A DNA stretch of 64,000 bases from an uncultured Gammaproteobacteria bacterium (GTDB lineage Bacteria > Patescibacteriota > Microgenomatia > 2-02-FULL-39-11), in assembly GCA_964544585.1 (NCBI GenBank), contig CAZJBV010000001.1:45330-109329 (forward strand). The letters are read 5' to 3'. This document shows, piece by piece, positions 8,261 through 36,200 of the stretch; the stretch's first letter is position 1; each line of letters starts with the position of its first letter. The notes under the pieces were generated by a model that was not told where the DNA came from, searched no databases, and worked only from the letters and a program-made list of their open reading frames with translations. Position numbers and translations under genes: made by a program.

Positions 8261-8689
8261 TTAATCTTTGTCTTTTAGAATGGTCAGAAAATCGTTGGGA
8301 GTAACCAGTGTTATTCCTTCATAGGAACTACCAATCTTTCTCATGAGTGGACCATCTCCGGTCACCAAATAATCTACTTGTGCACTTAATGCTGTCGCCA
8401 AGGTAAGATCGTCTTCAGGATGTGTAGCGACTCCTTCAATTTTGACTATTATGGGAGTAATGGTAGCTTCATTTTGTAATAATTCAATAAAAGATATTAC
8501 CTCGTTTGGGCTGACCCGCTGTTGGAAATATGGTTTTTGAAGTGTTCGGGTTAATTCAACCAAAATGTGTTCTGAAACCACAAGATTAAATTGTCCGTCT
8601 CTCCAAGCATCAAGTATTTGACCCGGAGGAGTTGAGGTGGTTAGTGTGCCGGATGCTAAGATATTGGTATCTAATACTGCGAAAACCAT
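8261..8689 (-). CDS. vapC: PIN-domain toxin (VapC-like)
   Basis: MVFAVLDTNIL N-terminus and LVTGD acidic motif typical of PIN nucleases; 4 nt from upstream antitoxin gene. Confidence 0.7.
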   Translation of the reverse strand: MVFAVLDTNILASGTLTTSTPPGQILDAWRDGQFNLVVSEHILVELTRTLQKPYFQQRVSPNEVISFIELLQNEATITPIIVKIEGVATHPEDDLTLATALSAQVDYLVTGDGPLMRKIGSSYEGITLVTPNDFLTILKDKD

Positions 8690-8692
8690 GCA

Positions 8693-8995
8693 TTAATTAC
8701 GATTATCACTTACTCGTTTTTCTTTTCTTACTTCACTAAGTGCATTGTTTACCTCTTTTGCTATCTCTTGTGGAGGAACATTTTTAAATGCTTCCCGGAT
8801 TCGATCTAAAACTTTGAATCGTTCTCTACGCTGTTTCTCAAGCTGTGTAAATCTTTCTAAATCTTCTGCTGATATAACAGCTGCCACCGGAATACCACTC
8901 TTTTTTACCACGACTCTGGTCTGTCCACGAAATATTTTATTAAGCAGTTGGCTCCATTGTTGTCTCACGTCTGAAGATTTCATTGTTTGAGTCAT
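8693..8995 (-). CDS. Phd/YefM-family antitoxin
   Basis: 100 aa; RQQWSQLLNKI...GQTRVVVKKSGIPVAAVISAEDLERF matches Phd/YefM fold; immediately upstream of PIN gene. Confidence 0.65.
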   Translation of the reverse strand: MTQTMKSSDVRQQWSQLLNKIFRGQTRVVVKKSGIPVAAVISAEDLERFTQLEKQRRERFKVLDRIREAFKNVPPQEIAKEVNNALSEVRKEKRVSDNRN

Positions 8996-22090: not shown

Positions 22091-22420
22091 TTATTTTGTG
22101 CTAATTGCAATTCTAGAAAATATTAAAGTCAATTCTTGTGCTTCTTTCCAGAGAACTCTGCATTCATCTCTTACTTTATCGTCTGCTTTAACAATTAATC
22201 TGAGCCAGTATTTTGTCTCTCTTGCTTCTTTCTTACAAATAACAATTTTGTTTTTAAAATCTTTTTTACTTCCTGCACCGTTTGCTTCGAAATAGTTTGC
22301 TCCTATACTGGTTGCTGCTCTGACCAATTGATTAATAATCGGCGATGTAATAGATGAAGGTTTAACTTTCTTACACATTTCTATTACTCTTTCGGAAAAA
22401 TCGGCTGTTCTTTCTTCCAA
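22091..22420 (-). CDS. Four-helix-bundle protein (23S rRNA intervening-sequence protein family)
   Basis: Characteristic GANYFEANGAGSKKDFKNKIVICKKEARETKYWLRL segment; 109 aa. Confidence 0.7.
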   Translation of the reverse strand: MEERTADFSERVIEMCKKVKPSSITSPIINQLVRAATSIGANYFEANGAGSKKDFKNKIVICKKEARETKYWLRLIVKADDKVRDECRVLWKEAQELTLIFSRIAISTK

Positions 22421-22447: not shown

Positions 22448-24751
22448 TTAAATTACTAATCCTTTCATCTCTACGCTTCCACCACAGTATTTTTGAATAA
22501 TAGCGATTGTTTCGTCGAGAGATCTTTGGACTTTTTGCCGAGTGGCGTCATAAATTCCATCAAGATTTAAAATAACATTTTTCGTATCCAGGGTGACTGC
22601 GGTTCTTTTTGCATCTCGAAAATTAAAATCAATATTGTATCCGCCGATAGCATCAAAATAGGCAATTTCTTTTTCTGTGTAGGCGGTAGGTTTTTCGTCG
22701 CCTAAAAGATGGATTTCTTCTCCTTTTTTGGCAAATCTGATGATGGTCGGCAATTTCATTTTATCCAGATCAAAGGCGCCGACAGAGACTCTATGCTTCA
22801 TAACAATTAGATTGTAAGAATCGACGCAAGTATTTATGGTGTATAATCCTTTTTTAAGAGCAACCCGACGAAGAAGGGCTTCGGGAGAAGGACGACGTGA
22901 ATGCCAGTCGATTCCCGTCTCTTTATAGAGTCTTCTATAACTTATAATCTCCGGATATTTTCCAAGTTCTTCTGTGGTGAGGCCTTGAATTGAAGATAGA
23001 AATTCTTCTTTTTCTTTTTCTAATTCAGGGTTTGTTTTTTCTACTTTTATTCCTTTAATAATGGCGATGCCTATTGAGATCGATGGATATTTTTCTTTTA
23101 ATTTGGGATCGATGGAAAAAATATCCGGTCGAGAAATAGTTTTAATTGTTGATATTTTTTCTTTAGTTTTTTGTTGTTTATTCAGCGTTAATCGTTCGCT
23201 GATTACATCTTTGGGAAATTTATTGAGTAGCCAACCAGCTCTAGGTCCATAAGGTTTATCAAGTATTACTGTATACAATGCTTTAAAGGCATCTTGGTAA
23301 TTGATATTAATGGATTTAGTTAGCTGAAAAATTTCAGATTGCAACTTTTCAGGGTCTTTTGATTCTTGCCAAATTTTTGCCAGACCATTCAAAAATTTCC
23401 ATTGATTTTCAGATAGCGTAATTTCAGGAAATGATTTTATTGATATTTGATACTTATATTCGTTAGGAGCATATTTACTTAACCAAACAGTGGCATTGGT
23501 AAGTCGGTCCTGCAAAATATCATTTTCTTCATCTGTGAGTGAAGATCCTTTAATTTGAGCAAATCGGTCCCAGAGTTTAACGTTTGGAAGTTGTCTAAAA
23601 TTCGCTATATCTCGAAAGCGGGGAATAAAAAGATTAGGATTTTTTGGCGGAATGTCATCAATTTGAGATAATTCATAGGCACGGGAGAGGTCGGGGTCAC
23701 CGCTTTTATTATATGCTTGCCAGCAACGATCGTACTCGTCAAAAAGATCAGGGATAGCCATGGTTTCGACAGGATCAAACTCGATGGCCTGTCGGTAGTC
23801 TGTCCTTGTAAACATAAACCGGACTAGGTATGGTGGCATAATATCTGAAACTTCTTTTGCAGACACACCCATACCTTTACTGGATGACATTTTTTTACCG
23901 CCGATGAGGAAAAATTCGTGCGAAAACCCAAAAGGAGTAGGATAATCAATCACACGTTTACATATTTGTTCTGCAATATCATGCGAGCCTCCGGCGCCCA
24001 TATGGTCTTTACCCGCGCCTTCAATTGTCACGCCAATTACTTTCCATTTGACCGCCCATTCTACTTTCCAAGATAACTTTCCAACAAATTTTCCATTGTT
24101 GCTAAATGGGCTAATTTTACCTTCATACCCGCATCCCTTAGTCCAGTCGACGGCATCTTCTTTGCAGGTAAAATGAACGTTTTCACTATCCCATTTGTAG
24201 ACTCTGGTGGTAGACTCTTTACCGCATTTCGGACAAACTACTTGGAATGGATACCAATCAGGTTGGAGCGACTTTTTGTACATTTTTTCATAAATATCCC
24301 GAATAATATCAGCTTTATCCAGACAAATTTTAATATCCTTGTTCATTTTGCCTGATTTATATAAATCAGCACTCCAGATGATTTTTGGTTCCGATCCAAT
24401 TTTATTGAACACGTGTTTGAATTCCAAAGCAAAGTACTCGGCATAATTTTTCGCAGCTTTGGGATCAGGCGAGGGAATAGTAAATAATGGTTGCCCTAAA
24501 TATTTTTCCCATTTTTCTTTCTCCAGATAAATTGGCAAACCATCCATGGGATCCTGGTCTTCAAAAACATAGCTGAATGTCACTTTTTGTCCGGAGTCTT
24601 TTAAAGCGCGGTTTATTGAGTCGTGTACAACAACGCCCCGAAGTGAACCGACATGAATCCTGCCCGAAGGAGTCTTCATGTCGTCAACCCAGTAGGGAGT
24701 GTATTTACCAGAATCTATTATCTTTTTTGCAATTTTATCGGCCCAGAACAT
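22448..24751 (-). CDS. lysS: Class I lysyl-tRNA synthetase fused to a C-terminal B3/4-like domain
   Basis: HIGH-like PSGRIHVGSLRG and KMSKS-like KMSSSKG; N-terminal catalytic body is about 530 aa (class I LysRS-sized) with a ~230-aa extra C-terminal domain resembling PheT B3/4. Confidence 0.7.
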   Translation of the reverse strand: MFWADKIAKKIIDSGKYTPYWVDDMKTPSGRIHVGSLRGVVVHDSINRALKDSGQKVTFSYVFEDQDPMDGLPIYLEKEKWEKYLGQPLFTIPSPDPKAAKNYAEYFALEFKHVFNKIGSEPKIIWSADLYKSGKMNKDIKICLDKADIIRDIYEKMYKKSLQPDWYPFQVVCPKCGKESTTRVYKWDSENVHFTCKEDAVDWTKGCGYEGKISPFSNNGKFVGKLSWKVEWAVKWKVIGVTIEGAGKDHMGAGGSHDIAEQICKRVIDYPTPFGFSHEFFLIGGKKMSSSKGMGVSAKEVSDIMPPYLVRFMFTRTDYRQAIEFDPVETMAIPDLFDEYDRCWQAYNKSGDPDLSRAYELSQIDDIPPKNPNLFIPRFRDIANFRQLPNVKLWDRFAQIKGSSLTDEENDILQDRLTNATVWLSKYAPNEYKYQISIKSFPEITLSENQWKFLNGLAKIWQESKDPEKLQSEIFQLTKSININYQDAFKALYTVILDKPYGPRAGWLLNKFPKDVISERLTLNKQQKTKEKISTIKTISRPDIFSIDPKLKEKYPSISIGIAIIKGIKVEKTNPELEKEKEEFLSSIQGLTTEELGKYPEIISYRRLYKETGIDWHSRRPSPEALLRRVALKKGLYTINTCVDSYNLIVMKHRVSVGAFDLDKMKLPTIIRFAKKGEEIHLLGDEKPTAYTEKEIAYFDAIGGYNIDFNFRDAKRTAVTLDTKNVILNLDGIYDATRQKVQRSLDETIAIIQKYCGGSVEMKGLVI

Positions 24752-25406
24752 AGACCTTTCCCTTTTTTGCTTTATTCCAATTATACGATAATATGGGCGC
24801 AGAGCATACTAGTGTCATGTTTTTATCGTGATAGTAATGCAGAGAAAAATAATCTGAAAAGCTTGGGTATTGGTTAAGAAAATAAAAACTTTTGCCGTCT
24901 GATAATCCTATATTCATGCCTTCAATTGAACGTGAATGGGAAATGAGAGTTTTGTGGACAGAATCTAAAGCCTGACTTAATGATTTTTTTTGCTTTTTAA
25001 ATAATTGAATAAGAGAAAAAATTTTTTGTGCTCCGATTTTTCCGAAAAGGGGAAGATTTAGGCGAACGCCTTTTAGCATTCCATTGAAAACAAAACAGAG
25101 ACCATCGTCTATATACGGTTGATTGTATTCAATAATCCCCTTTTGGTCGGGAAAGCCTGCGCTCCTGGCGTGGACAATAAGGATTTTAGTTTCAGGCAAT
25201 TGTGGGAAAAGTTTATTATCTTTCCAGATGGGATTAAGTGATTTTTTGGTGATCCATTTTCCCGATGTTTCCCAAGCTACTCCCCAACCGTCATTCTGTA
25301 AATCTCCGTCTGGTGTGCGGCTTTTTTGGCACATTTGGGAAAATGCAGTTAAAAAATGCTGCGGATTAAATTTCCTTTTTGATTTTATGAGAAGGAAACG
25401 GCACAT
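24735..25406 (-). CDS. Class II (Ntn) glutamine amidotransferase-like protein (YafJ/EgtC-like)
   Basis: Starts MCRF (Cys2 nucleophile), DGWGVAW and HARSAG motifs of GATase class II; overlaps lysS start by 17 nt and lies last in the lysine operon. Confidence 0.6.
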   Translation of the reverse strand: MCRFLLIKSKRKFNPQHFLTAFSQMCQKSRTPDGDLQNDGWGVAWETSGKWITKKSLNPIWKDNKLFPQLPETKILIVHARSAGFPDQKGIIEYNQPYIDDGLCFVFNGMLKGVRLNLPLFGKIGAQKIFSLIQLFKKQKKSLSQALDSVHKTLISHSRSIEGMNIGLSDGKSFYFLNQYPSFSDYFSLHYYHDKNMTLVCSAPILSYNWNKAKKGKVYVLGR

Positions 25407-25407
25407 A

Positions 25408-26553
25408 TTAATTTTTAAAAATTTCTTTTAGAGCGTTTATGACCATGTCTACTTCTTTTTTAGTTATCAAGTACGGAGGAAGAAAACGGACTATATTTGA
25501 TCCGGCTGGAATGGCAATAATATTTTTCTCTTGCAAAGCTTTTAGTAACCAGGTAGCATTTTCTTTCAATTGGATTCCAAGCATAAGACCAATACCTCTT
25601 GCCTCTAAAATTTTGTCTGAATCAATTTTTTTCAGTTGGGATAAAAAATATTCTCCAGTTTTTTTAATATGACTAAAGATATCTTTATTACCAAATTCAT
25701 CTAGAGTTGTAACAACACCGGCGCAGGCTAAGGGATTGCCACCAAAAGTAGTTGTATGAAGATGCATGGGAATTTTTTGCGCTATTTGTTCTGTCACGAG
25801 CGTTGCACCAATTGGTATTCCACCACCCAATCCTTTTCCAAGACAAAGAATGTCGGGTGAGATACCAAGTTGCTCTGATGCCAGGAATGTACTTGTTCTT
25901 CCTACTCCTGTTTGAATTTCATCAACAATGAGTAAAATATTGTTTTCCCGGCAGAAAGACTGAAGGGAGTGGAAGTATTCTTTTGACGCTAATTTGATTC
26001 CTCCTTCTCCTTGAATGGGTTCTGTAATAATTCCGGCGATATCTTTCGGTGCCATTTTTTTGAGAGCATTCACTTCACCAAAAGGAATATGAGTAAAATT
26101 CCAAAGAAGCGGAAGAAAGGGTACACGATATTTTTCTCCTCCCGTTGCTGAAAGAGCACCTAATGTTTTTCCATGATAGCCATGTTCCATAGCTATAAAA
26201 TGTTTTTTTCCAGTTGCAAGACAGGCAAATTTTAGAGCTGCCTCTATGGCTTCTGCGCCAGAATTTGAGAAAAATACTTTTGTTAATTTGCCCCCACAAA
26301 TAGTAATTAATTTCTCTGCAGCCTGATTTCTCATTTCGTTGTTAAATGAACCATGAAGATCAATAAGTTTAGATATTTGATTTACTAGTGCATCGTTTAT
26401 CTTTTGATATCCATAGCCAAAAATATTTACACCATAATTACTCCCGAGATCTAGATATTGTTTCCTGCTTGTGTCTATAAGATACATTCCTTTTCCTTTG
26501 ATAAAGGTAATACCCCTATTGGGGTATGAGGCGACTAAATGATTATTTAACAT
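25408..26553 (-). CDS. lysJ: Class III aminotransferase (LysJ/ArgD-type acetylornithine / LysW-gamma-lysine aminotransferase)
   Basis: PLP aminotransferase class III motifs (DEIQTG, catalytic Lys region LCLGKGLGGG). Confidence 0.7.
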   Translation of the reverse strand: MLNNHLVASYPNRGITFIKGKGMYLIDTSRKQYLDLGSNYGVNIFGYGYQKINDALVNQISKLIDLHGSFNNEMRNQAAEKLITICGGKLTKVFFSNSGAEAIEAALKFACLATGKKHFIAMEHGYHGKTLGALSATGGEKYRVPFLPLLWNFTHIPFGEVNALKKMAPKDIAGIITEPIQGEGGIKLASKEYFHSLQSFCRENNILLIVDEIQTGVGRTSTFLASEQLGISPDILCLGKGLGGGIPIGATLVTEQIAQKIPMHLHTTTFGGNPLACAGVVTTLDEFGNKDIFSHIKKTGEYFLSQLKKIDSDKILEARGIGLMLGIQLKENATWLLKALQEKNIIAIPAGSNIVRFLPPYLITKKEVDMVINALKEIFKN

Positions 26554-27341
26554 ATGGTTGTACCTCCACCTTTTAAGGCATTTGTAATAGGATGGGGAAT
26601 TCTGCCATCGCCGAAATAAATTTTTTTTGCTCCGAAATGGATTGCTTCCTTGACGCCGAGAAGTTTTTTTCTCATTCTGTCTTCTGTTTTTTTTATATAT
26701 TGATCTAACTGGTCAAATTTGATTGTTTTAATCATTGATTTTTTATCATCTCTATCCTCTAGTAAACCCGGGGCTTCAAAGAGGATGACTATTTTTTTTA
26801 TATTGAGATCGCGGACCATGACTGCGGCAGCTCTATCATTATCGACATTGATGAGTAGTCCATCAGCGGTTATTGCCGGAATGGTGATAACAGGAATAAA
26901 GCCGGATTTTATAAGCAAGGCTATCAGAGTTTTATTAACTGAAATTACATTTCCGGTGAGAGAGTTTCTTATTATTTTGGTTTTATTGCCTACTTTTGCA
27001 TAAATTACGTCTTTTTGTTTGCCAAGCCAGGTTTTGCCATCGGCTCCGGAAAGTCCAACTGCATTTAGGCCATGTTTTTGCAGTGTAGCGACAATTTTTT
27101 TGTTGATGAGACCACTATAGACCATAGTAAGTAACTCTATGGTTTGGCTATCAGTGTAGCGGCTGGTTTGGCCTGTGGGAGAGGTAATTATTTTTTCTTT
27201 TAACTTTAGTTTTTCGGTAATATCTTTCATCCAGGCATTTGCACCGTGCACTATCACATATTCTTCAGAAATGCTTTGCAAATCCGCGGCAATGTAATCC
27301 CAGTTGATAGCTTTTCCGCCACCAATTTTAATGATAATCAT
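26547..27341 (-). CDS. lysZ: Amino acid kinase LysZ/ArgB-type
   Basis: AAK fold: IIKIGG N-terminus, HGAN, 264 aa; within lys cluster. Confidence 0.7.
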   Translation of the reverse strand: MIIIKIGGGKAINWDYIAADLQSISEEYVIVHGANAWMKDITEKLKLKEKIITSPTGQTSRYTDSQTIELLTMVYSGLINKKIVATLQKHGLNAVGLSGADGKTWLGKQKDVIYAKVGNKTKIIRNSLTGNVISVNKTLIALLIKSGFIPVITIPAITADGLLINVDNDRAAAVMVRDLNIKKIVILFEAPGLLEDRDDKKSMIKTIKFDQLDQYIKKTEDRMRKKLLGVKEAIHFGAKKIYFGDGRIPHPITNALKGGGTTIC

Positions 27342-28350
27342 GACTTCTTTTTAAATTTTTTATAACTTCTTTTGTTACTTCTGTGGTTGTTGCATTGCCC
27401 CCGATATCCGGTGTGGTGCAGTTGTTTTTTATTGTTTTTATGATGGCTTCTTTTATTGCTTGGGAATACTTTTCCAGTTTCAAATATTCCAGCATCAGAC
27501 ATACTGCAAAAAAAGTGGCGAGAGGATTGATGCGGTTTTTCCCTTTGTATTTTGGCGCCGATCCGTGTACTGGTTCAAAAAGAGCATATTTGTTGCCTAT
27601 ATTTGCAGAAGCTGCTACTCCCAATCCTCCAACCAATGCTGCAGCAACATCAGATAAAATATCACCAAACATGTTGGTGGTAACAATAATGTCAAATGTT
27701 TCCGGTTTTTTTACCAAGTTCATTGCACATGAGTCGACCAACATATCATCAAAATAAATAGAAGAATATATTGGAGCAATTTTTTGTGCCATTGCCAAAA
27801 ATAGACCGTCAGTTAAACGCAATACATTAGATTTATGTACGACAGTCACTTTCTTTCGTTTTTGGTTGGTTGCTAAACGAAAGGCAGATTCAATGATGCG
27901 TTTACTTGCGTATGTAGTAATTACTCTTTCTGCTATAGCTCCTTCTTTTGTCTTTTTTTCTCTTCCTATATAGAGATCTTCGGTATTTTCTCTGACGATT
28001 GTAAAATTAATGTCCTGCCGGGTCCCTGGTAATGGCAGTGAAAAAAAAGGTCGGATATTAGCATAAAGATTTAAGTCTCTCCTCAATTTTACAATGGGGC
28101 TGAAATAATTTTTTATATGGGGAGGACTAGTAACGGCTCCAAAGAGTATGGCATCAGCCATTTTACATGTATCGATCGTATGAGAAGGTAAAGGAATACC
28201 GCAATTTAAATAGCAATCATATCCGGCTCTCGCTTCAACAAATCTAAAAGGTATAGGTAATTGCTCCAATAACTGAAGAGATTGGTCGATAACTTCCGGC
28301 CCTATACCATCTCCTTTGATGACACAAATAGTGTATTTATTAGTTTTCAT
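27328..28350 (-). CDS. Homoisocitrate/isopropylmalate dehydrogenase family enzyme (putative homoisocitrate dehydrogenase)
   Basis: ICVIKGDGIGPEV N-terminus, HGSAPKYKGK; 340 aa; between homoaconitase and lysZ. Confidence 0.7.
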   Translation of the reverse strand: MKTNKYTICVIKGDGIGPEVIDQSLQLLEQLPIPFRFVEARAGYDCYLNCGIPLPSHTIDTCKMADAILFGAVTSPPHIKNYFSPIVKLRRDLNLYANIRPFFSLPLPGTRQDINFTIVRENTEDLYIGREKKTKEGAIAERVITTYASKRIIESAFRLATNQKRKKVTVVHKSNVLRLTDGLFLAMAQKIAPIYSSIYFDDMLVDSCAMNLVKKPETFDIIVTTNMFGDILSDVAAALVGGLGVAASANIGNKYALFEPVHGSAPKYKGKNRINPLATFFAVCLMLEYLKLEKYSQAIKEAIIKTIKNNCTTPDIGGNATTTEVTKEVIKNLKRSHDYH

Positions 28351-28808
28351 TGAAATGTAATTATATTTTTTAAACTTTTTAAGCCATTTTTTTGTAAATA
28401 GGGAATAATTCCACCCTCATGGTATAAACGGAGCATCAGAGGAGGAATCAGCACTTTTCTTTCTATGTATAAATTTAAGTCATCTTTTTCATCAATTTTT
28501 GAAGTATCTACCTCGATTAGAAGCATGCCTATATTTAAACAATTTCGGTAAAAGATTCTGGCAAATGATTTTGCCAGGATGGCTTTCACTCCTGCGTACT
28601 TAAGCGCAATTGCCGCTGTCTCCCGGGAACTGCCGCAGCCGAAATTTTCTCCCGCAATAATAAAATCACCTTTTTTAACTTTTTTTCTGAATTCGGGCCT
28701 ATATTCTATAAAAGCAATTTCGGCCAATTTTTTAGCGTCGGTTGTGATGTTGTATCGACCGGGAGTGATAAGGTCAGTATTGATATTGTCGCCAAACATC
28801 CAATTCAT
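28347..28808 (-). CDS. Homoaconitase/3-isopropylmalate dehydratase small subunit (LeuD-like)
   Basis: MNWMFGDNINTDLITPGRY N-terminus typical of LeuD/LysU small subunit. Confidence 0.75.
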   Translation of the reverse strand: MNWMFGDNINTDLITPGRYNITTDAKKLAEIAFIEYRPEFRKKVKKGDFIIAGENFGCGSSRETAAIALKYAGVKAILAKSFARIFYRNCLNIGMLLIEVDTSKIDEKDDLNLYIERKVLIPPLMLRLYHEGGIIPYLQKNGLKSLKNIITFQ

Positions 28809-30082
28809 GATAAATACCTCCTTGGATCTGTAATATATCCAGTAATTGCACTAGCTGCTGCTGTTGCCGGGGACGCCAGATATATTAGAGCTTTGGCGCT
28901 TCCCATGCGGCCGGTAAAGTTTCTATTACTTGTCGATACGCAAATCTCACCATCGGCTAGAACTCCCTGATGCCGTCCGAGACACGGACCACAACCGGGA
29001 TTGGTTATAATCGCTCCAAGTTTGGTGAAAAATTCAATGTATCCTTTATGGAGAGCTTGAATATAGACCAACTTGGAAGCTGGAGTGATAATGACGCGAA
29101 GGCCGGGACGAAGTTTTTCTCCCTTCCACATGATATAGACTATATCGAGATCCTCAATACGACAATTGGTACAGGAGCCTATAAAAACTTGGTCAAGTTT
29201 TATCTTTTCTTTTTCTACTTCAATGACGGTAACGACATTGTCGATATCAGGAGGACGGGCAATAAGAGGTTTCAAATCAGCGACATTAAATGACATTACT
29301 TTTTCATAGTCTGCATCTTTATCACTTTTTAGTTCATTTTCAGAAAAGGCATAATCCCGACTATTTTTCTCTAAATACTCTTTTGTATTTTTGTCTGGTG
29401 GTACGATCGCGGCTTTGGCTCCCATTTCGGCAGACATATTGGTAAGGGTCAACCTATTGGGAACGTTAAAGCTTGATACTACTTCTCCACCATACTCTAA
29501 TACTTTATAGTTACCCCCGTCTGGTCCAATAACTTTTGCCACAGAGAGGATGACGTCTTTAGAAAAGACGCCTTTTTTAAGTCGTCCGTTTATTTCTATT
29601 TTGATTGTTTTTGGTACACGAAACCAGCATTTTCCTGTGGCCATAGCTATCGCTGCATCTGTAGAGCCTACTCCGATAGTTAAAGCGCCTACACCCCCTC
29701 CTGTGGGAGTATGAGAATCGGCACCTAATACCAGATTTCCGGGATTAATGAATCGTTCAGACATAATTTGGTGGCAGACTCCTTCTGTAGTAATTGGTAT
29801 CCTTTGCTCGTCGGCAAATTTGCGAATTGCTGCTTGAAGCGTAGCTACCTGGGTATTCGGTGCAGGAAACGCATGATCAAAAGGAATAAATATTTTCTTT
29901 TTATTCCAAACTTTTTTGGCAATGGCATAGAAAGGTTCTAGCGCCCACGCACAAGTCGTATCATGCGCCATAACTAAATCGAGATCTGCCAAGACAAAGT
30001 CTCCCGCATGTACTTTTTTTCGGGCATGATTAGAAAATATTTTTTCGGCAATAGTTTGTCCCATATTATTGTAAGTTTTCAA
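28805..30082 (-). CDS. Homoaconitase/3-isopropylmalate dehydratase large subunit (aconitase family, archaeal-type LeuC/LysT)
   Basis: MGQTIAEKIFSNH...LVMAHDTT and Fe-S ligand Cys region GSCTN / GCGPCLG. Confidence 0.8.
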   Translation of the reverse strand: MKTYNNMGQTIAEKIFSNHARKKVHAGDFVLADLDLVMAHDTTCAWALEPFYAIAKKVWNKKKIFIPFDHAFPAPNTQVATLQAAIRKFADEQRIPITTEGVCHQIMSERFINPGNLVLGADSHTPTGGGVGALTIGVGSTDAAIAMATGKCWFRVPKTIKIEINGRLKKGVFSKDVILSVAKVIGPDGGNYKVLEYGGEVVSSFNVPNRLTLTNMSAEMGAKAAIVPPDKNTKEYLEKNSRDYAFSENELKSDKDADYEKVMSFNVADLKPLIARPPDIDNVVTVIEVEKEKIKLDQVFIGSCTNCRIEDLDIVYIMWKGEKLRPGLRVIITPASKLVYIQALHKGYIEFFTKLGAIITNPGCGPCLGRHQGVLADGEICVSTSNRNFTGRMGSAKALIYLASPATAAASAITGYITDPRRYLS

Positions 30083-31307
30083 TCCTATTCATCAATATTT
30101 GTTGTTTCATAGGTAATTTTTCTAACTTAAATTCTTCTACGACTTTCTTTAAAAGTACTTCCGGACGGTTTCTTTTCGTAACTCTATGTATATGTTTTTT
30201 AAATAATTTTGCAATTACTTTGGCTTGATCGGGTGTAACATCATAATAGTCAATTTCGCGTAAATAATAATAAATGAGATTCCATCCGCTGAGTGGACCT
30301 AGTAATAACTGGTTTCTAGTTACACCAAATTTTTGTAAATCATGTGCTTCATAAAGTCCATGGTGATTCATTACTGCTTTTTGATGCACTCCTGCGGTAT
30401 GTGTGCGATTGGTAAGAGACACCGGTTCGTTGTAGGGAACATGCCATTTGAGGATTGCGCCCATCAGTACATTAAGAGGATATGCGTATTCTAAATTATA
30501 ATTTTTGCAAAGTTGCCTTTGTTCAAAAAATGAATTGAGAAGAATTCCGGTAAGAGAAGTAATTCCTGATCTTTCAGCCATGCCCCAGATTGATGTATCT
30601 ATATAAGAAACACCAGATTGAATAGCGGTAAGAGCGTTTATTAGAGATAGACCTCGGTCATTGTGGAAGTGGCCCTCTAACATGACTTTTGGGTAGCGTG
30701 TTTTTAAAGCGGTGACATGATGTTTTACTAAGTCTGGGGTGGCACAACCTACGGTATCGGGCATACCAAACATATCAACATATTTATAAATAGTATCGTA
30801 AATACGAAATGTATCTTTTAAAGGAGTCCGGAAACAATCTTCGACACTAAATCGTATTGAAAGGTGTGGATATTTTAAGCGGACTGCAATAATAGTGTCT
30901 TTAATCATTTTTGCAATTGTATCAAAAGAATATCCATGGCTATATTTTTGGGCTCTTTCGGCGATACCCATGTATATTTGTAGTCCATCAAAACCAGCTT
31001 GGATGGCTTCTTCTATATCTTTAGGGTGACAGCGTACATGTGCGTAACAGGAAATTTTTTCTTGCACATTTTGTTGAATAAATTCTCTTAATCGTAAGAA
31101 GTCGTTTTGTTCAGCTTTACTTACGACAGGCGAAAAAAATTCGAATCGGCGAACTCCTAATTGGATGAGACCGTTTAGGAGTACTTTTTTATCGGCAAAA
31201 GAAAAACGATATTTTCCACTATCAAACATTAGTGGGGATTGTTGCCCATCTCGAAATGTTGTATCTATAAAGCCTTTAAATGTATTTAGGTGATTATTTT
31301 TTTTCAT
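30066..31307 (-). CDS. Homocitrate synthase / 2-isopropylmalate synthase family (LeuA/NifV DRE-TIM)
   Basis: TFRDGQQ substrate motif and HFHNDRGLSL...GMAERSG metal-binding HxH motif. Confidence 0.7.
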   Translation of the reverse strand: MKKNNHLNTFKGFIDTTFRDGQQSPLMFDSGKYRFSFADKKVLLNGLIQLGVRRFEFFSPVVSKAEQNDFLRLREFIQQNVQEKISCYAHVRCHPKDIEEAIQAGFDGLQIYMGIAERAQKYSHGYSFDTIAKMIKDTIIAVRLKYPHLSIRFSVEDCFRTPLKDTFRIYDTIYKYVDMFGMPDTVGCATPDLVKHHVTALKTRYPKVMLEGHFHNDRGLSLINALTAIQSGVSYIDTSIWGMAERSGITSLTGILLNSFFEQRQLCKNYNLEYAYPLNVLMGAILKWHVPYNEPVSLTNRTHTAGVHQKAVMNHHGLYEAHDLQKFGVTRNQLLLGPLSGWNLIYYYLREIDYYDVTPDQAKVIAKLFKKHIHRVTKRNRPEVLLKKVVEEFKLEKLPMKQQILMNRIENLQ

Positions 31308-31309
31308 AT

Positions 31310-32377
31310 TTATATGGGGTGAAGTCCGGGAAACTCTAATCCCGTAGTTTCAGGAAACCCATACATAATGTTCATGGCCTGAATTGCCTGGCCGGCAGTA
31401 CCTTTGCCTAGATTATCTATGGCGCCGATTGCAACTAGGCGATTTTCTCTTTCGGAGAGAGCAAAACCGATGTCGCAGTAGTTTGTACCTGTGAGGATTT
31501 TTGGCTCGGGAAAGCGATAGTTGCCTGTTTCTTTTTTGACAAGTCTTACAAATGGTTCGTTTTCGTAAGCTTGGCGATAAGCTTTCCAGACATCAAGTTC
31601 TTTTACGCCATGATGTGGTATGGCGTGGATTGTAACGAGGAGGCCGCGAACTATTTCAATGGTGGTAGCAGTGACAGAGACTTTTAGGTTTTTGACATAT
31701 GGCGATAATTCCTGTTCTATTTCAGCTGTGTGACGATGATTTATTGGCTTGTAAGTTCTGACTACGCCATGACGTTCAGGATGATGTGAAGAATAGGAAG
31801 GAGTATTCCCCCCTTGGGAACTGCTCATTTTGGCATCGATGATAATATCCGGCTTGATAAGTTTGTATTTGACAAGAGGATAAAGAGTTAAGATGGAGAC
31901 AGTAGCCTCACAGCCACCACATGAAACAAACGATGTTTTTTTTATTTTATGGCGATTGAGTTCGGCGATACCGTAGACAAATTTATTTAAAAGGGATGGA
32001 TATAAGTGAGTCGTTTTATACCAATCAGCAAAAATGCTTTTATCGTGCAAGCGAAAATCAGCGCCGAGGTCTATAATTTTTCTGGCACTTTTTTGGGCAA
32101 GGCGCATATATTCCATGGATTTGCCGTTGGGAAGAGCCAGAAATATGAGGTCGGTTTTTTTAATATCTTTAAATCGACAAAAAGTAAGATCTGTTATTTT
32201 TCTTAAGTTAGGATGAACTTCGCCGACTGGCAAACCTGCAAATTTGCGGGAAGTGACATATTTTAATTCAATGTAAGGATGAAAGAGGAGAATGCGAAGT
32301 AACTCTCCGCCTGCATACCCGGACCCGCCAATTATAGAAACAGATATTTTCCTGTTCATGATATTTTTTCCAGACAA
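31310..32377 (-). CDS. lysY: N-acetyl-gamma-glutamyl-phosphate / LysW-aminoadipyl-phosphate reductase (ArgC/LysY)
   Basis: VSIIGGSGYAGGELLR NAD-binding N-terminus, catalytic Cys region; 355 aa. Confidence 0.8.
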   Translation of the reverse strand: MSGKNIMNRKISVSIIGGSGYAGGELLRILLFHPYIELKYVTSRKFAGLPVGEVHPNLRKITDLTFCRFKDIKKTDLIFLALPNGKSMEYMRLAQKSARKIIDLGADFRLHDKSIFADWYKTTHLYPSLLNKFVYGIAELNRHKIKKTSFVSCGGCEATVSILTLYPLVKYKLIKPDIIIDAKMSSSQGGNTPSYSSHHPERHGVVRTYKPINHRHTAEIEQELSPYVKNLKVSVTATTIEIVRGLLVTIHAIPHHGVKELDVWKAYRQAYENEPFVRLVKKETGNYRFPEPKILTGTNYCDIGFALSERENRLVAIGAIDNLGKGTAGQAIQAMNIMYGFPETTGLEFPGLHPI

Positions 32378-33204
32378 TAATTAATAATTTCTCCTGCAAT
32401 GTTTACGTTTGTGACTCTTTGAACGTTTTTAAACTCCATGGTGTGATTGACTTCGTTTATGAGGAGTCCATCGTTTGTTTCAAAGACGTCTATTCCCAAT
32501 ACTCCCTCGCCTATTGCGGCAATAGTTTTTTGGGCGATATCCTCTAAATCTTTGGTAATTTTGCAGTTAAGAGGCAAGGCTCCGCGAGCTGTATTAGTGA
32601 TCCAATGATCACTCTTTCTATATATTGCAGCTATTGCATTACGTCCAATAACATTTAAGCGTATATCTCTTCCGTGCTTTTCTATATATTGCTGCATATA
32701 GAAGGCGTGGTGTGATGGTCCTCCTAAGACTGTTTTACTTTCTAAAATGGACTCGAGACTATCTAAGTCGTTTATTTTGGCTATAAGCCTCCCCCACGAT
32801 CCTGAAACCGGTTTTATAACAACAGGGAATCCCCCCCACGCTTCGACTGCAATCTTTGCTTGACGCTCACTAAATACCATACAAAATTTGGGTGTGGCGA
32901 CTTTATGTTTCCAAAGAGCTAAAGAGGTAATGAATTTATTCTCGCAGACTTGGGCGACAGAAAGAGAGTTTACACAAGGAATATTTAAACTGGCAAAAAA
33001 TTCCAGGGCGTGCATTCCTTTGACGGTTGAGACGCAACGCTCAAGAACGACGTCAAAGCCATAAGAATTATCCGGGTCGAAAATCTGTTCCCGGACATCA
33101 ATAATGTCAAGTGAAACTCTATTTTTTTTAGCTGCCTCGATGATGAGTTTTTCGTCGCCTCTTATGGTTGTATGTAAAAGGCCAATTTTTTTATTTTTTA
33201 GCAT
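32356..33204 (-). CDS. lysX: RimK-type ATP-grasp ligase LysX (LysW--alpha-aminoadipate ligase)
   Basis: 282 aa ATP-grasp; immediately downstream of lysW. Confidence 0.75.
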   Translation of the reverse strand: MLKNKKIGLLHTTIRGDEKLIIEAAKKNRVSLDIIDVREQIFDPDNSYGFDVVLERCVSTVKGMHALEFFASLNIPCVNSLSVAQVCENKFITSLALWKHKVATPKFCMVFSERQAKIAVEAWGGFPVVIKPVSGSWGRLIAKINDLDSLESILESKTVLGGPSHHAFYMQQYIEKHGRDIRLNVIGRNAIAAIYRKSDHWITNTARGALPLNCKITKDLEDIAQKTIAAIGEGVLGIDVFETNDGLLINEVNHTMEFKNVQRVTNVNIAGEIINYCLEKIS

Positions 33205-33207
33205 ATT

Positions 33208-33393
33208 TTATTGCCCCCAATCTTCTTCAACTTTTGGAGCTTCTTTTAAATTAAATTTACTACTTTTGTTGTCGACTGAGACTACTTCAAGCTTTGAACC
33301 ACAATCCTTACAGGAAATAATTTCCGAAACTTCAACGGATGTAATCTTTATATTTGCGTCACATATGGGACAACTACCTAGCATAAAAATCAC
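33208..33393 (-). CDS. lysW: Amino-group carrier protein LysW
   Basis: 61 aa; zinc ribbon CPICD...CKDCG; acidic C-terminus EEDWGQ (LysW EDWGE-like tail); strong RBS AAGGAGGTG. Confidence 0.8.
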   Translation of the reverse strand: MIFMLGSCPICDANIKITSVEVSEIISCKDCGSKLEVVSVDNKSSKFNLKEAPKVEEDWGQ

Positions 33394-33518
33394 CTCCTTT
33401 TAGCCATATCCCAGTACTATGCTTACCTCAAGCCGGAGGCTTCCAGCCTCGCGCTCTTGAGGGGCGCAAGTACGGGATTTGCAAGAGTAATACTCGCAAA
33501 GCTCGTAAACTCTTGCAT

Positions 33519-33545
33519 AAAAAAACCCCTCATTTGAGGGGTTAG
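33519..33545 (-). terminator. Intrinsic terminator hairpin inside lysW leader (attenuator terminator)
   Basis: Minus-strand CCCCUC-AAAU-GAGGGG followed by U7 run. Confidence 0.6.
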
Positions 33546-33569
33546 TAGGTCACGAAACGACAACAGAAA

Positions 33570-33632
33570 CTAACCCCTAATAAAAGGGGGTCGCTTCTTG
33601 GGTTCGTTGACAATATAATTTGTTTGTTTCAT
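33570..33632 (-). CDS. Putative 20-aa leader peptide with tandem Lys codons (MKQTNYIVNEPKKRPPFIRG)
   Basis: ATG 8 nt after a TATAAT -10 (leaderless-like); AAG AAG immediately precedes first attenuator hairpin; stop lies inside antiterminator segment. Confidence 0.35.
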   Translation of the reverse strand: MKQTNYIVNEPKKRPPFIRG

Positions 33633-33671
33633 TATGGACTATTATACCAGAGATATTTATCGAGTCAAATT

Positions 33672-34136
33672 TTAATCAATCGAGAGTATTTTGTAAAGGA
33701 TTTTTCCAACCGGCGCCTCTACCTCTACCTTTTCTCCTACCTTCTTTCCCAGAAGGGCTTTGCCCAATGGTGAAGAGTGAGAAATCTTTTTTTGGGTGGG
33801 ATCTGCTTCCCATTCGCCGACTATGGTAAATACGTCTCTTTTGCCATTGAGGTGAAGGGTGACTCTGGAGCCAACGTCTACTTTTGACCTGGAATGGCTG
33901 GAGACTATTTTGGCTTCGTGAAGGATGGTCTCTAGCTCGGCAATTCTGCCGTCGATGAAGCCTAGATCCTGTTTAGCCGATGTGTATTCGCTATTCTCGG
34001 CTAGATCTCCTTGGGAGCGCGCGTTGGCAAGCCGAGAAACTAGTTCCGGCCTTTTTTTATTAAGAAGCTCGTCGTATTCTTTTTTGAGCTCCGTCATGCC
34101 GTCTTTGGTGAGTAATATTTTCTGTATGTTGTTCAT
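33672..34136 (-). CDS. greA: Transcription elongation factor GreA
   Basis: N-terminal coiled coil with LTKDGMTELKKEYDELL, acidic tip, C-terminal FKBP-like domain; 154 aa. Confidence 0.9.
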   Translation of the reverse strand: MNNIQKILLTKDGMTELKKEYDELLNKKRPELVSRLANARSQGDLAENSEYTSAKQDLGFIDGRIAELETILHEAKIVSSHSRSKVDVGSRVTLHLNGKRDVFTIVGEWEADPTQKKISHSSPLGKALLGKKVGEKVEVEAPVGKILYKILSID

Positions 34137-34256: not shown

Positions 34257-34285
34257 TTGTCAAGACAATCTTGAGGCTATATAAT
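34257..34285 (+). promoter_or_regulatory. Putative sigma70-like promoter for tRNA-Glu (TTGTCA-17-TATAAT)
   Basis: ggcTTGTCAagacaatcttgaggctaTATAATacc about 28 nt upstream of tRNA 5' end. Confidence 0.35.
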
Positions 34286-35915
34286 ACCTACTGAGGCTAA
34301 ATAAAAGCTTTTTGCCGCCATCGTCTAGTGGCCCAGGACGGTACCTTCTCAAGGTACAAATCGGGGGTTCGAATCCCCCTGGCGGTACCCAGTTCCGACT
34401 TGTCGGGGCCGCCCGCAGGGCGGCCCAAGGTTCGCGCGCGTTACCGCGCGCTATTTTGTGGTTGAGAGTCAGGTTCGAGCCGAAGATTTTTTGGGCCAAT
34501 ACCTTTTTCTGGTATAAATCATTGCCCCTTGCGATGTTTGCCGCGCTAGCGGCATCTATAACCCATGTCCGCATGGGTTCGAGCCAAGCATTTTGCGTTT
34601 GTTCAAATGTTTTTACTTTCTCTTCCAGCGTCTTCTTGATATTTAACAGTTCAGCTTTTTTAAAGCGGTACGTTTCTATATCAATTTCCTGATCCAAATA
34701 AGCATCTAGAAGACGCTGTAACTTGATATTAATATTTTCAATTTCCATTTTTTTCATTTGAACAAACGCTCGGCAGGATTGGGCAGTGTCTTTTTCTTCC
34801 TCTTTGAGTTTAACTAACATTCTATTTGCCCAATCCTGACGTAAAGAAACTTTTTGAATAAGGCTGGATAGCTGCCTATCCAGGACTTCTTCGCGAATAT
34901 AAAGTTCGCGGCAAGAAATTGTTTTGGATTTTTTGGTACACCTATAATAAGTATGGCCTTTTTGAATTTCAGCTGTAATCATCATGCCGCAACTACTGCA
35001 GCGAAGAAGCCGGGCAAATGGTTTGGGGATTCTTCCCTTGTCTTTGATATGTTGGGGCTTACTCCTGTCTTTCAAAACCATTTGCACTTTATCAAAAAGT
35101 TTCTTGGAAATGATGGGCTCGTGGATTCCCTCGTATAATTCTCCACCAAACCGAAAGAAACCGACATAAAACGGGTCGGAAAGTACATATTTAATTCTGT
35201 CTTTATGAAGAGGCTTGTTACCTCTTGAGAAAATACCATGACGAGCCAAAAAGTCAGATATATCTTCAAGTCTTGATTCATTTTGGGCATAGATACCAAA
35301 TGCAAGGGAAATGTAGGGTGATTTAAATTTATCAACTACAATTTTCTTAGTCCTGACATTATTTAGATACCCGATGGGTGCCAGACTGGGAAATTCTCCT
35401 TTTCTTACTTTTTGGCGAAGTCCTCTTTTGGTATTTTCAGAGAGGGAATCCACATAGTACTTACTTTGCCCAAACGCAATATTGAGCATAAATTTACCCT
35501 GCGGAGTGGATTCAAACCAGAATTGGGGAAATTTGAGAAACTTGATTTTACCAGTATCAACTAGATAAATAATCCTTCCTCCATCTATACTATTGCGCGC
35601 AAGTCTATCCGGATGCCAAGCCAAGATACCGGCGGCTTCACCTTTTTCAATTCTCTCAATCATAGAATTGAAAACAGGACGGCCGGGAATCTTGGCCGAT
35701 TGTTTCTCAATAAGTTCCTCAATAATGGAAATTGACTCACGTTTGGCAAATTCCCTAAGCTCCGTAATCTGTGCCTCGATAGATAATACCTGTTTATCCT
35801 CTGTATCTGTAGACTTGCGCGCATACAAAAATAATTTTTGCAGAGTTGGTAATTGAGATCTTAAATACTCTTTTGGAGGTCTTGTTATGAGATTGTTGGC
35901 AGGAGTGGTAATCAT
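34260..35915 (-). CDS. Large serine recombinase (resolvase/invertase catalytic domain + recombinase domain + zinc ribbon + coiled coil); 3' end as drawn reads through inverted repeat and antisense tRNA
   Basis: YARKSTDTEDKQ...SIEAQ catalytic Ser region, zinc ribbon CSSCGMM...YYRCTKK, long coiled coil; C-terminal ~70 aa are Ala/Arg/Pro/Gly-rich translation of GC-rich IR and tRNA antisense, so true C-terminus uncertain. Confidence 0.75.
   Translation of the reverse strand: MITTPANNLITRPPKEYLRSQLPTLQKLFLYARKSTDTEDKQVLSIEAQITELREFAKRESISIIEELIEKQSAKIPGRPVFNSMIERIEKGEAAGILAWHPDRLARNSIDGGRIIYLVDTGKIKFLKFPQFWFESTPQGKFMLNIAFGQSKYYVDSLSENTKRGLRQKVRKGEFPSLAPIGYLNNVRTKKIVVDKFKSPYISLAFGIYAQNESRLEDISDFLARHGIFSRGNKPLHKDRIKYVLSDPFYVGFFRFGGELYEGIHEPIISKKLFDKVQMVLKDRSKPQHIKDKGRIPKPFARLLRCSSCGMMITAEIQKGHTYYRCTKKSKTISCRELYIREEVLDRQLSSLIQKVSLRQDWANRMLVKLKEEEKDTAQSCRAFVQMKKMEIENINIKLQRLLDAYLDQEIDIETYRFKKAELLNIKKTLEEKVKTFEQTQNAWLEPMRTWVIDAASAANIARGNDLYQKKVLAQKIFGSNLTLNHKIARGNAREPWAALRAAPTSRNWVPPGGFEPPICTLRRYRPGPLDDGGKKLLFSLSRYYIASRLS
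34314..34387 (+). tRNA. tRNA-Glu (anticodon CUC)
   Basis: Cloverleaf readable: acceptor GCCGCCA/UGGCGGU, D-arm TCGTCTAGTGGCCCAGGACG, anticodon stem GTACC/GGTAC with loop TTCTCAA (CTC), T-arm GGGGGTTCGAATCCCCC; CCA not encoded. Confidence 0.85.
34386..34485. repeat. IR1 left copy: ~100-bp GC-rich inverted repeat starting at the tRNA-Glu discriminator base
   Basis: acccagttccgacttgtcggggccgcccgcagggcggcccaaggttcgcgcgcgttaccgcgcgctattttgtggttgagagtca... reverse-complement of 36106..36200; contains internal palindromes GGCCGCCCGCAGGGCGGCC and GCGCGCGTTACCGCGCGC. Confidence 0.9.
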
Positions 35916-36105: not shown

Positions 36106-36200
36106 TTCGGCTCATGACTCTCAACCACAAAATAGCGCGCGGTAACGCGCGCGAACCTTGGGCCGCCCTGCGGGCGGCCCCGACAAGTCGGAACTGGGTA
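36106..36200. repeat. IR1 right copy (inverted), abutting IR2
   Basis: Reverse complement matches 34386..34471 perfectly, then 4-5-nt indel, then gagccgaag matches again. Confidence 0.9.

Follow-up and report, generated by a model that had tools for sequence, protein, structure and literature searches.

We describe here a candidate lysine-responsive transcription attenuator in front of lysW, the first structural gene of a probable lysine-biosynthesis operon, in a 64,000-nt stretch of contig CAZJBV010000001.1 (assembly GCA_964544585.1, positions 45,330 to 109,329) of an uncultured groundwater bacterium. An identical copy of the locus was detected in runs SRR12113430 and SRR12113385. This whole stretch is called the window, and its own numbering is used throughout. 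All features are on the minus strand unless another strand is named. The leader lies between the upstream gene greA (33672..34136) and lysW (33208..33384, ATG at 33384). It starts with a sigma-70-type promoter (33641..33668), composed of TTGACT (33668-33663), a 16-nt spacer and TATAAT (33646-33641), where a TG at 33649-33648 gives an extended -10 box (TGgTATAAT). The pattern TTGAC-N14-16-TGnTATAAT occurs once in the window, at this promoter, versus 0.01 occurrences expected from shuffles, and the simpler pattern TTGAC...TATAAT has two matches, of which the leader promoter is one, versus 0.22 expected. The ATG (33632-33630) of a 20-codon open reading frame (ORF), MKQTNYIVNEPKKRPPFIRG, is found 8 nt past the -10 box with no Shine-Dalgarno (SD) sequence in front of it, and the ORF ends at TAG (33572-33570; whole ORF 33570..33632). 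It holds one AAA and the putative regulatory Lys codons AAG AAG (33594..33599), which are followed by CGA (Arg) and CCC (Pro).

The ORF overlaps and precedes a set of mutually complementary segments. Segment 1, CCCCC (33586..33590), is the core of an anti-antiterminator hairpin spanning approximately 33549-33611. Segment 2, AGGGGTTAG (33578-33570; 10-nt form AGGGGUUAGU, 33569..33578), contains the stop codon TAG, and segment 3, CTAACCCCT (33545-33537; 10-nt form ACUAACCCCU, 33537..33546), supplies the 3' strand of the antiterminator and shares bases with the 5' arm of the terminator. The intrinsic terminator, AACCCCTC-AAAT-GAGGGGTT (33543-33524, T7 at 33525-33519; the element spans 33519..33543), is placed between the leader ORF and lysW, and has a GC-rich stem of 8 bp (AACCCCUC/GAGGGGUU), the loop AAAU and then U7. 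Every element listed in a preliminary description of this DNA was found again in place, base for base. The greA gene ends 3 nt before the -35 box, and terminator prediction gave it no terminator of its own ahead of the leader, so the attenuator terminator probably ends greA transcripts too. The plus strand of the leader region has only ORFs judged spurious, which run antisense to greA, and a single promoter-like match (10/12, 33607-33635).

The 114-nt leader folds at -35.7 kcal/mol (z = -4.0 versus dinucleotide shuffles). The preliminary description had proposed the alternative pairings 1:2, 2:3 and 3:4, and computed folding confirmed all three as described, while refining two of them: the 1:2 pairing (CCCCC:AGGGG, -7.3 kcal/mol) is the core of a larger hairpin of -22.3 kcal/mol, and the 2:3 helix has 10 bp (-14.3 kcal/mol, or -16.3 kcal/mol with a small internal hairpin). 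In the extended 1:2 hairpin, the Lys-codon stretch AGAAGC pairs with GUUUCU just 3' of the stop codon. The 3:4 terminator has -13.4 kcal/mol. The duplex of segment 2 and segment 3 has -16.6 kcal/mol (z = -4.7, p = 0.002 versus shuffles), and the 2:3 antiterminator helix is mutually exclusive with the terminator. Segment 2 begins 15-16 nt past the last Lys codon and has the stop codon inside it. With a ribosome modelled on either AAG (RNA masked to nt 48-51), the 2:3 helix was the minimum-energy fold (-16.3 kcal/mol) until segment 4 emerges, and with a ribosome modelled on TAG (masked to nt 75), the terminator was the only structure able to form.

The leader was compared with 173 loci, 80 genome loci and 80 metagenome loci collected via LysX and 13 added by exact-protein look-ups. 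The closest LysX matches are from 'Candidatus Gottesmanbacteria' bins (Microgenomates, Candidate Phyla Radiation (CPR)/Patescibacteria); the contig of the closest homologue (P0002, 83% identity) ends short of the upstream region. A leader that combines a promoter, a Lys-codon-containing short ORF and a terminator was detected immediately 5' of lysW in each of L001-L004, L081, L082/L083, L085, L086, L097, L105, L119, L164-L166, L170, L171/L172 and L173. The leader ORFs of these relatives have 15-28 codons, and the predicted peptides, each followed by the terminator, are MANILTQDTRKPAKRTRQEEGSLLR (L001), MINNFVLLRKGEKKPFYMTGCLL (L002 and L170), MRSQIRFVHDSKKAKKRTHLRRGSIFVV (L003), MTRNFQITVENKRPLLI (L004), MKIDIYLFRKEAKKPFLVEG (L081), MKKDTYKGRKNAKKPLVLEG (L082), MHKTFIKSEKISNKRPFSIRG (L085), MISTISLLHKKEVKKPRN (L086), MKFEQFIISESKKRLS (L097), MEIRNIQKKKGKKLL (L105), MISQTNPKQKKEKKPFP (L119), MIVNLINTRKPAKRILNLEVGLLR (L164), MMTFTIINVRKDRKELLIKEERLL (L165), MNTDFYLFRNEVKKPFLIEGCSL (L166), MTANIYKFTAENNKRPPSVARG (L171) and MRKNLNIKTANKRPRN (L173). 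The gene order greA-leader-lysW is common to L003, L004, L081, L164 and L173. The more distant genome L077 (labelled Chloroflexia) has two analogous units in tandem, MNPRLFKKSKKPITER and MIVNFVDTQKKQSKKPDDPSGSLCCA, and L043 and L053 have one each. In total, the comparison gave at least about 20 distinct Lys-leader instances, in genomes of CPR, Chloroflexota-like and other origin. The Lys codons and hairpins, whose possible loss from orthologous leaders the preliminary description had singled out for checking, are both kept, together with the ORF, the antiterminator complementarity and the terminator.

The association with lysW was assessed by counting ATG-initiated ORFs of 8-45 codons with tandem Lys codons (KK) ahead of terminators located up to 260 nt 5' of lysW, after removal of identical sequences. 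Such an ORF precedes 14 of 23 lysW-proximal terminators versus 17 of 333 other terminators in the same DNA (odds ratio 29, Fisher p = 3e-11), and among all tandem residues Lys alone is enriched at the lysW-proximal terminators (0.61 versus 0.05). Of the 17 'background' cases, at least 5 turned out to be Lys leaders as well, before genes of the homocitrate-synthase (hcs) type, namely L001b, L002b and three Thermus loci. The leaders kept in relatives and the specificity of this enrichment for lysW-proximal terminators support the lysine-attenuation reading of the preliminary description. L001b (MSHLSQNLVNKSKKQTHLRRGISA, L001 1958-1976) is a second Lys leader, before a divergent 475-aa homocitrate-synthase-like gene, and L002b (MKINYYKKGKKQGSLNGGYF, L002 8650-8668) is a second Lys leader before hcs; each of the two ends in a ACCCCTCC...GAGGGGT terminator.

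In the region from the last Lys codon to the terminator, a segment complementary to the terminator 5' arm is significant in 12 of 16 leaders (mean z = -2.7) and is located at the stop codon; in the family as a whole, the position of segment 2 relative to this codon ranges from about -26 to +19 nt. This antiterminator complementarity is retained despite differing sequences between the leaders: segments 2 and 3 are AGGGGUUAG : CUAACCCCU in the window and L004 and GGGUGCUUGUUA : UAACGAGCCCC in L002. L119 has another terminator (CAACUUCUUUC...), whose 5' arm is the pairing partner of its segment 2 (GGGAAGAGGUUAGUUC). Within the closest subfamily (the window, L171, L085, L173, L004), three blocks are invariant, AAGCGACCC, GGGGTTAG and CTAACCCC, and they coincide exactly with segments 1, 2 and 3; the linkers and the loop of the terminator differ between members, and the stop codon moves by a few bases and stays at segment 2. 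Members of the wider family differ in sequence but retain an ATG near the promoter, from which a frame with 2-7 Lys codons runs open to a stop at segment 2. The 1:2 hairpin is weak or absent in some relatives (L001, L003), so untranslated leaders there would read through.

Relatives with a recognisable promoter have it at the matching position, of the TTGACA-17-TAAAAT type and ending 7-14 nt before the leader ATG. The 20 nt 5' of the leader ATGs pair poorly with the anti-SD sequence (-2.9 kcal/mol or weaker in most leaders). The SD GGAGGTGA, on the other hand, precedes lysW in the window (33390..33397) and in all relatives, and L002b, the one operon-internal leader, has an SD as well. The promoter geometry fits a 5' untranslated region (5' UTR) of 0 to approximately 7 nt, and the conserved 7-14 nt between the -10 box and the ATG, with the missing SD, make it plausible that the leader ORF is leaderless.

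The codon usage of the leaders is distinct from that of genes. Lys makes up 18% of leader codons versus 9% in genes, and AAG takes 48% of the Lys codons in CPR leaders versus 16% in window genes. The share of CCC among Pro codons is 11/13 (85%) in CPR leaders versus 27% in window genes, a bias explained by its role in segment 1, where CCC pairs with the GGG of segment 2. CGA accounts for 10 of 21 Arg codons in CPR leaders versus 12% in window genes. In most CPR leaders (the window, L001-L004, L081, L082, L085) CGA was observed directly beside the Lys codons, a position that may tune ribosome pausing or may reflect RNA pairing.

Rfam covariance-model scans bore out the statement of the preliminary description that L-box and T-box signatures are absent: L-box (RF00168) and T-box (RF00230) had no match at E <= 10 in 33200-33900 and none at the gathering score in the window. 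The best Rfam match, Phe_leader (RF01859), is sub-threshold (26 bits versus the gathering score of 55, E = 0.05) and is a resemblance of architecture only. No riboswitch, T-box or leader family was recovered by the scans of the region (E <= 10), of six related loci (E <= 0.5) and of the window (gathering score), which otherwise gave tRNAs and one sub-threshold T-box in L004. The latter is located at 8592-8801 of this Gottesmanbacteria contig (54.7 bits versus the gathering score of 93), and T-box-like leaders may exist in this group. The literature searched yielded no report linking CPR bacteria with leader-peptide attenuation.

We suggest, with a probability of roughly 0.85, that the leader is a ribosome-mediated transcription attenuator, through which the availability of charged tRNA-Lys would set the expression of the lysW operon. 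Direct observations are the sequence elements with their energies and geometry, the conservation of these elements and the specificity with which they accompany lysine-biosynthesis genes. In the proposed mechanism, transcription would begin at or within a few nt of the leader ATG, and the ribosome would load independently of an SD and trail RNA polymerase. When Lys-tRNA is scarce, the ribosome would stall at AAG AAG, the rare Lys codon of this genome, covering segment 1 and leaving segment 2 (AGGGGUUAGU) free. Segment 2 would then pair with the emerging segment 3, the terminator would be blocked and the polymerase would continue into lysW. When Lys-tRNA is plentiful, the ribosome would reach TAG and mask segment 2, allowing 3:4 to pair and transcription to terminate at U7. 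An untranslated leader would form the 1:2 hairpin and terminate, and the same would apply to greA read-through transcripts.

Several points weigh against this proposal. With segment 4 out, the terminator together with an alternative segment-2 pairing has -18.7 kcal/mol versus -16.3 kcal/mol for the antiterminator, a difference of 2.4 kcal/mol; the terminator state is thus favoured at equilibrium, and read-through would have to be kinetic. The same probably holds for the E. coli trp attenuator. L004, L173, L085 and L171 have a single Lys codon where the window has two, so the conservation of AAGCGACCC may partly reflect RNA pairing rather than decoding. The compared loci are phylogenetically related, and the p-values therefore overstate their independence. 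The start site, ORF translation, lysine response and operon extent are deduced from sequence, and we know of no demonstration of transcription-translation coupling in CPR bacteria.

The simplest alternative would be a plain greA terminator, with a constitutive lysW promoter located upstream of it by chance and the ORF and its Lys codons fortuitous. The absence of another greA terminator and the 3-nt distance between greA and the -35 box agree with it, as does the frequency of 20-codon frames in AT-rich DNA, about 5% of which we estimate to contain KK. A promoter ahead of a strong terminator would be futile, however, unless the terminator can be overridden. Moreover, lysW has the leader also in loci without an adjacent greA (L001, L002, L165) or with no greA in the fetched DNA (L085, L097, L105, L119), the leader occurs before hcs-type genes too, and the Lys enrichment and the antiterminator complementarity are highly non-random. 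The locus comparison largely refutes this explanation, and we give it hardly any probability. A switch worked by a small-molecule-binding RNA, a tRNA or an RNA-binding protein, with the ORF untranslated and AAGCGACCC / GGGGUUAG as a binding site or structure, would account better for the nucleotide-invariant blocks of the closest subfamily, for the frame that shifts around the stop between its members and for the members with one Lys codon at the regulatory position; the conserved structured spacer 3' of the terminator (described below) could be counted in its favour too. Such a switch would have a sensing region of just about 60 nt that matches neither L-box, T-box nor any other Rfam family, and what the wider family conserves is the coding signature of a translated leader, not the sequence, with Lys as the sole enriched residue. 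We regard it as very unlikely.

It is also conceivable that the control is ribosome-mediated but additionally senses Arg-tRNA, EF-P-dependent Pro stalling or general translation capacity, through CGA and CCC/Pro-Pro. The CGA excess among leader Arg codons points in this direction, and about 10 of 14 CPR leaders, like those of Thermus, have an Arg codon no more than two codons away from the Lys run; K-K-P, K-R-P and R-P-P are recurrent motifs; and some archaea have bifunctional LysW pathways that serve both Lys and Arg. The CCC codons, on the other hand, are accounted for by the pairing of segment 1 with segment 2, and the Arg codons come from only about 3-4 independent ancestries. The operon kinase best matches the Lys-specific, not the bifunctional, model (271 bits versus a cutoff of 223), and the operon holds the lysine-specific homocitrate branch. 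An additional input of this kind appears unlikely to us, and attenuation by charged tRNA-Lys is the reading that we prefer.

The terminator is separated from the lysW SD region by a GC-rich spacer of 134 nt (33385-33518), which folds at -56.5 kcal/mol (z = -6.0) into a minimum-energy structure that makes up 35% of the ensemble. Directly 3' of the U-tract it has a hairpin, HP1 (33480..33517), with a covarying outer stem and a conserved inner UUACGA...GAGUAUUAC. A pattern-plus-pairing scan found HP1 at the equivalent place in L001, L164 and L166 and nowhere else in the window, and the outer stem is fully compensated (CAAGAGT/ACTCTTG, TGAGAGT/ACTCTCA, GATTCGT/ACGAATC). Domain 2 (33408..33478) is a long, GC-rich, irregular hairpin that shares its closing helix and overall layout with L166, and a different conserved domain is present at this position in L002, L173, L001 and L167. 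L003, L004, L081 and L170 have no spacer at all, L170 otherwise differing very little from L002. The spacer can thus be dispensed with, but is structurally constrained in the loci that have it. It has no match to an Rfam family. By BLAST against the window and the 173 loci it is single-copy, which rules out a repeat or miniature inverted-repeat transposable element, and only L002 and L173 are alignable to it. MAFFT and RNAalifold on the spacers and HP1 gave poor automatic alignments and no usable consensus. A second promoter inside the spacer was considered and rejected, as none was predicted and a TTGACG-like word in HP1 is variably spaced from -10-like words; an ORF starting at the ATG right after the U-tract was rejected as well, as it is not conserved (L001 reads ATG TGA).

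These observations raise the tentative and rather doubtful idea of a two-layer lysW 5' control region in this CPR lineage, through which lysine synthesis and lysS, the gene for the class I lysyl-tRNA synthetase, would be controlled as a unit. The first layer would be a widespread, undescribed leaderless or near-leaderless family of Lys attenuators with a K-[K/R]-P core and rare AAG, CGA and CCC codons. HP1 and the long hairpin of conserved architecture would form the second layer, an independent regulatory RNA located 3' of the terminator and 5' of the SD.

Downstream of the leader, lysW (TIGR01206, 61.8 bits versus a cutoff of 53.2) is followed by the rest of the probable operon (22448..33204), from lysX to class I lysS. 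As confirmed with NCBIfam models, it comprises lysX (306 bits versus a cutoff of 275.6), lysY (argC-type reductase), a homocitrate-synthase-like hcs, hacA and hacB (homoaconitase subunits), hicdh (homoisocitrate dehydrogenase), lysZ (26547-27341, the kinase with the match to the Lys-specific [LysW]-aminoadipate kinase model given above), a lysJ-type transaminase gene (25408-26553), a small GATase-like gene (24735-25406) and lysS (22448-24751; TIGR00467, 353 bits). All these genes are encoded on the minus strand, with overlaps or gaps of at most 4 nt between neighbours, and no convincing internal terminator was predicted on the minus strand of this gene string, so that lysW to lysS is likely one 11-gene unit. 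The lysS gene stands at the end of the string, overlaps the preceding gene by 17 nt and encodes a class I (archaeal-type) enzyme of 767 aa, of which residues 1-522 match the model and approximately 245 C-terminal residues are extra. It may be co-transcribed and thus be under the Lys attenuator.

Just 3' of lysS, a 109-aa ORF (22091-22420) matches the '23S rRNA-intervening sequence protein' family (PF05635, 60 bits). On the other side of the leader, a perfect 86-nt inverted repeat (34386-34471 and 36115-36200) surrounds an ORF for a 551-aa large serine recombinase (34260-35915, minus strand), and one repeat arm overlaps tRNA-Glu(CTC) at 34313-34391. The repeat and the recombinase gene could be an element that inverts, or that has integrated, at a tRNA gene, or the arrangement could be an artefact of assembly.

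The mechanism itself is not new, being the textbook trp/his/thr scheme, of which a lysine version is known from Thermus. A Lys leader-peptide attenuator of the alpha-aminoadipate cluster of Thermus thermophilus was reportedly demonstrated by experiment by Tsubouchi and colleagues in 2005. The Thermus loci of our set (L071, L075, L080) have a 14-codon KK ORF, MLAR[G/E]KKL..., and a GC-rich terminator directly before hcs, which we take to be this published leader, so that it presumably serves as a positive control for the scan. The pathway and the logic are shared with the window leader, and the Thermus promoter ends about 10 nt before the ATG. The Thermus element precedes hcs, whereas the window element precedes lysW, and L001 and L002 have extra copies before hcs-type genes. 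No obvious similarity of peptide or hairpin between the Thermus and window elements is seen by eye, and both are too short for homology to be decided. The low-GC CPR host, the 1:2 hairpin that includes the Lys codons, the structured spacer and the apparent inclusion of lysS distinguish the window system from that of Thermus.

The enterobacterial trp, his, thr, leu and phe leaders share with the window the four-segment 1:2/2:3/3:4 scheme, the regulatory codons and the stop codon that blocks segment 2, but respond to a different amino acid, and the window leader falls outside the Phe_leader family. In enterobacterial leaders the ORF has an SD and at least about 25 nt of 5' UTR ahead of it, while the window ATG is 8 nt from the -10 box. 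Mycobacterial polycysteine small ORFs are leaderless. Actinobacterial leaderless leaders have no or almost no 5' UTR and the same attenuation logic, in another phylum and for another amino acid, while in the window leaderlessness is suggested by the promoter geometry. For the ilvBNC attenuator of Corynebacterium glutamicum, a leaderless leader peptide is documented (PMC11857589). L-box and T-box elements also control lysine-biosynthesis or lysyl-tRNA synthetase genes by terminator/antiterminator switching; unlike them, the window leader carries a conserved ORF and is far too short for either. New here are the CPR host group, the leader family, for which Rfam has no model, its conserved near-leaderless geometry and the probable presence of lysS in the controlled unit.

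Other Microgenomates of the comparison set (L005-L020, L087-L092) have lysW without a Lys leader. At approximately 60-130 nt 5' of lysW they show a divergently transcribed gene, the conserved palindrome TGTTAAnAnTTTAACA and a TTGACA promoter, which suggests control of their lysW operon by a transcription factor (repressor or activator). Sister Microgenomates lineages would thus solve the control of lysW differently, with a divergent gene and a palindromic operator.

If the proposed attenuation is true, it would extend ribosome-mediated attenuation and, by implication, transcription-translation coupling to bacteria of the Candidate Phyla Radiation, and it would define a lysine-leader family that has no Rfam model. 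The family also provides a simple annotation rule, by which such leaders are recognised from a short, Lys-rich ORF whose stop codon falls inside the antiterminator strand and which is followed by a terminator. If read-through reaches the class I lysS gene, one sensor of Lys-tRNA charging would control both the lysine supply and the charging enzyme.

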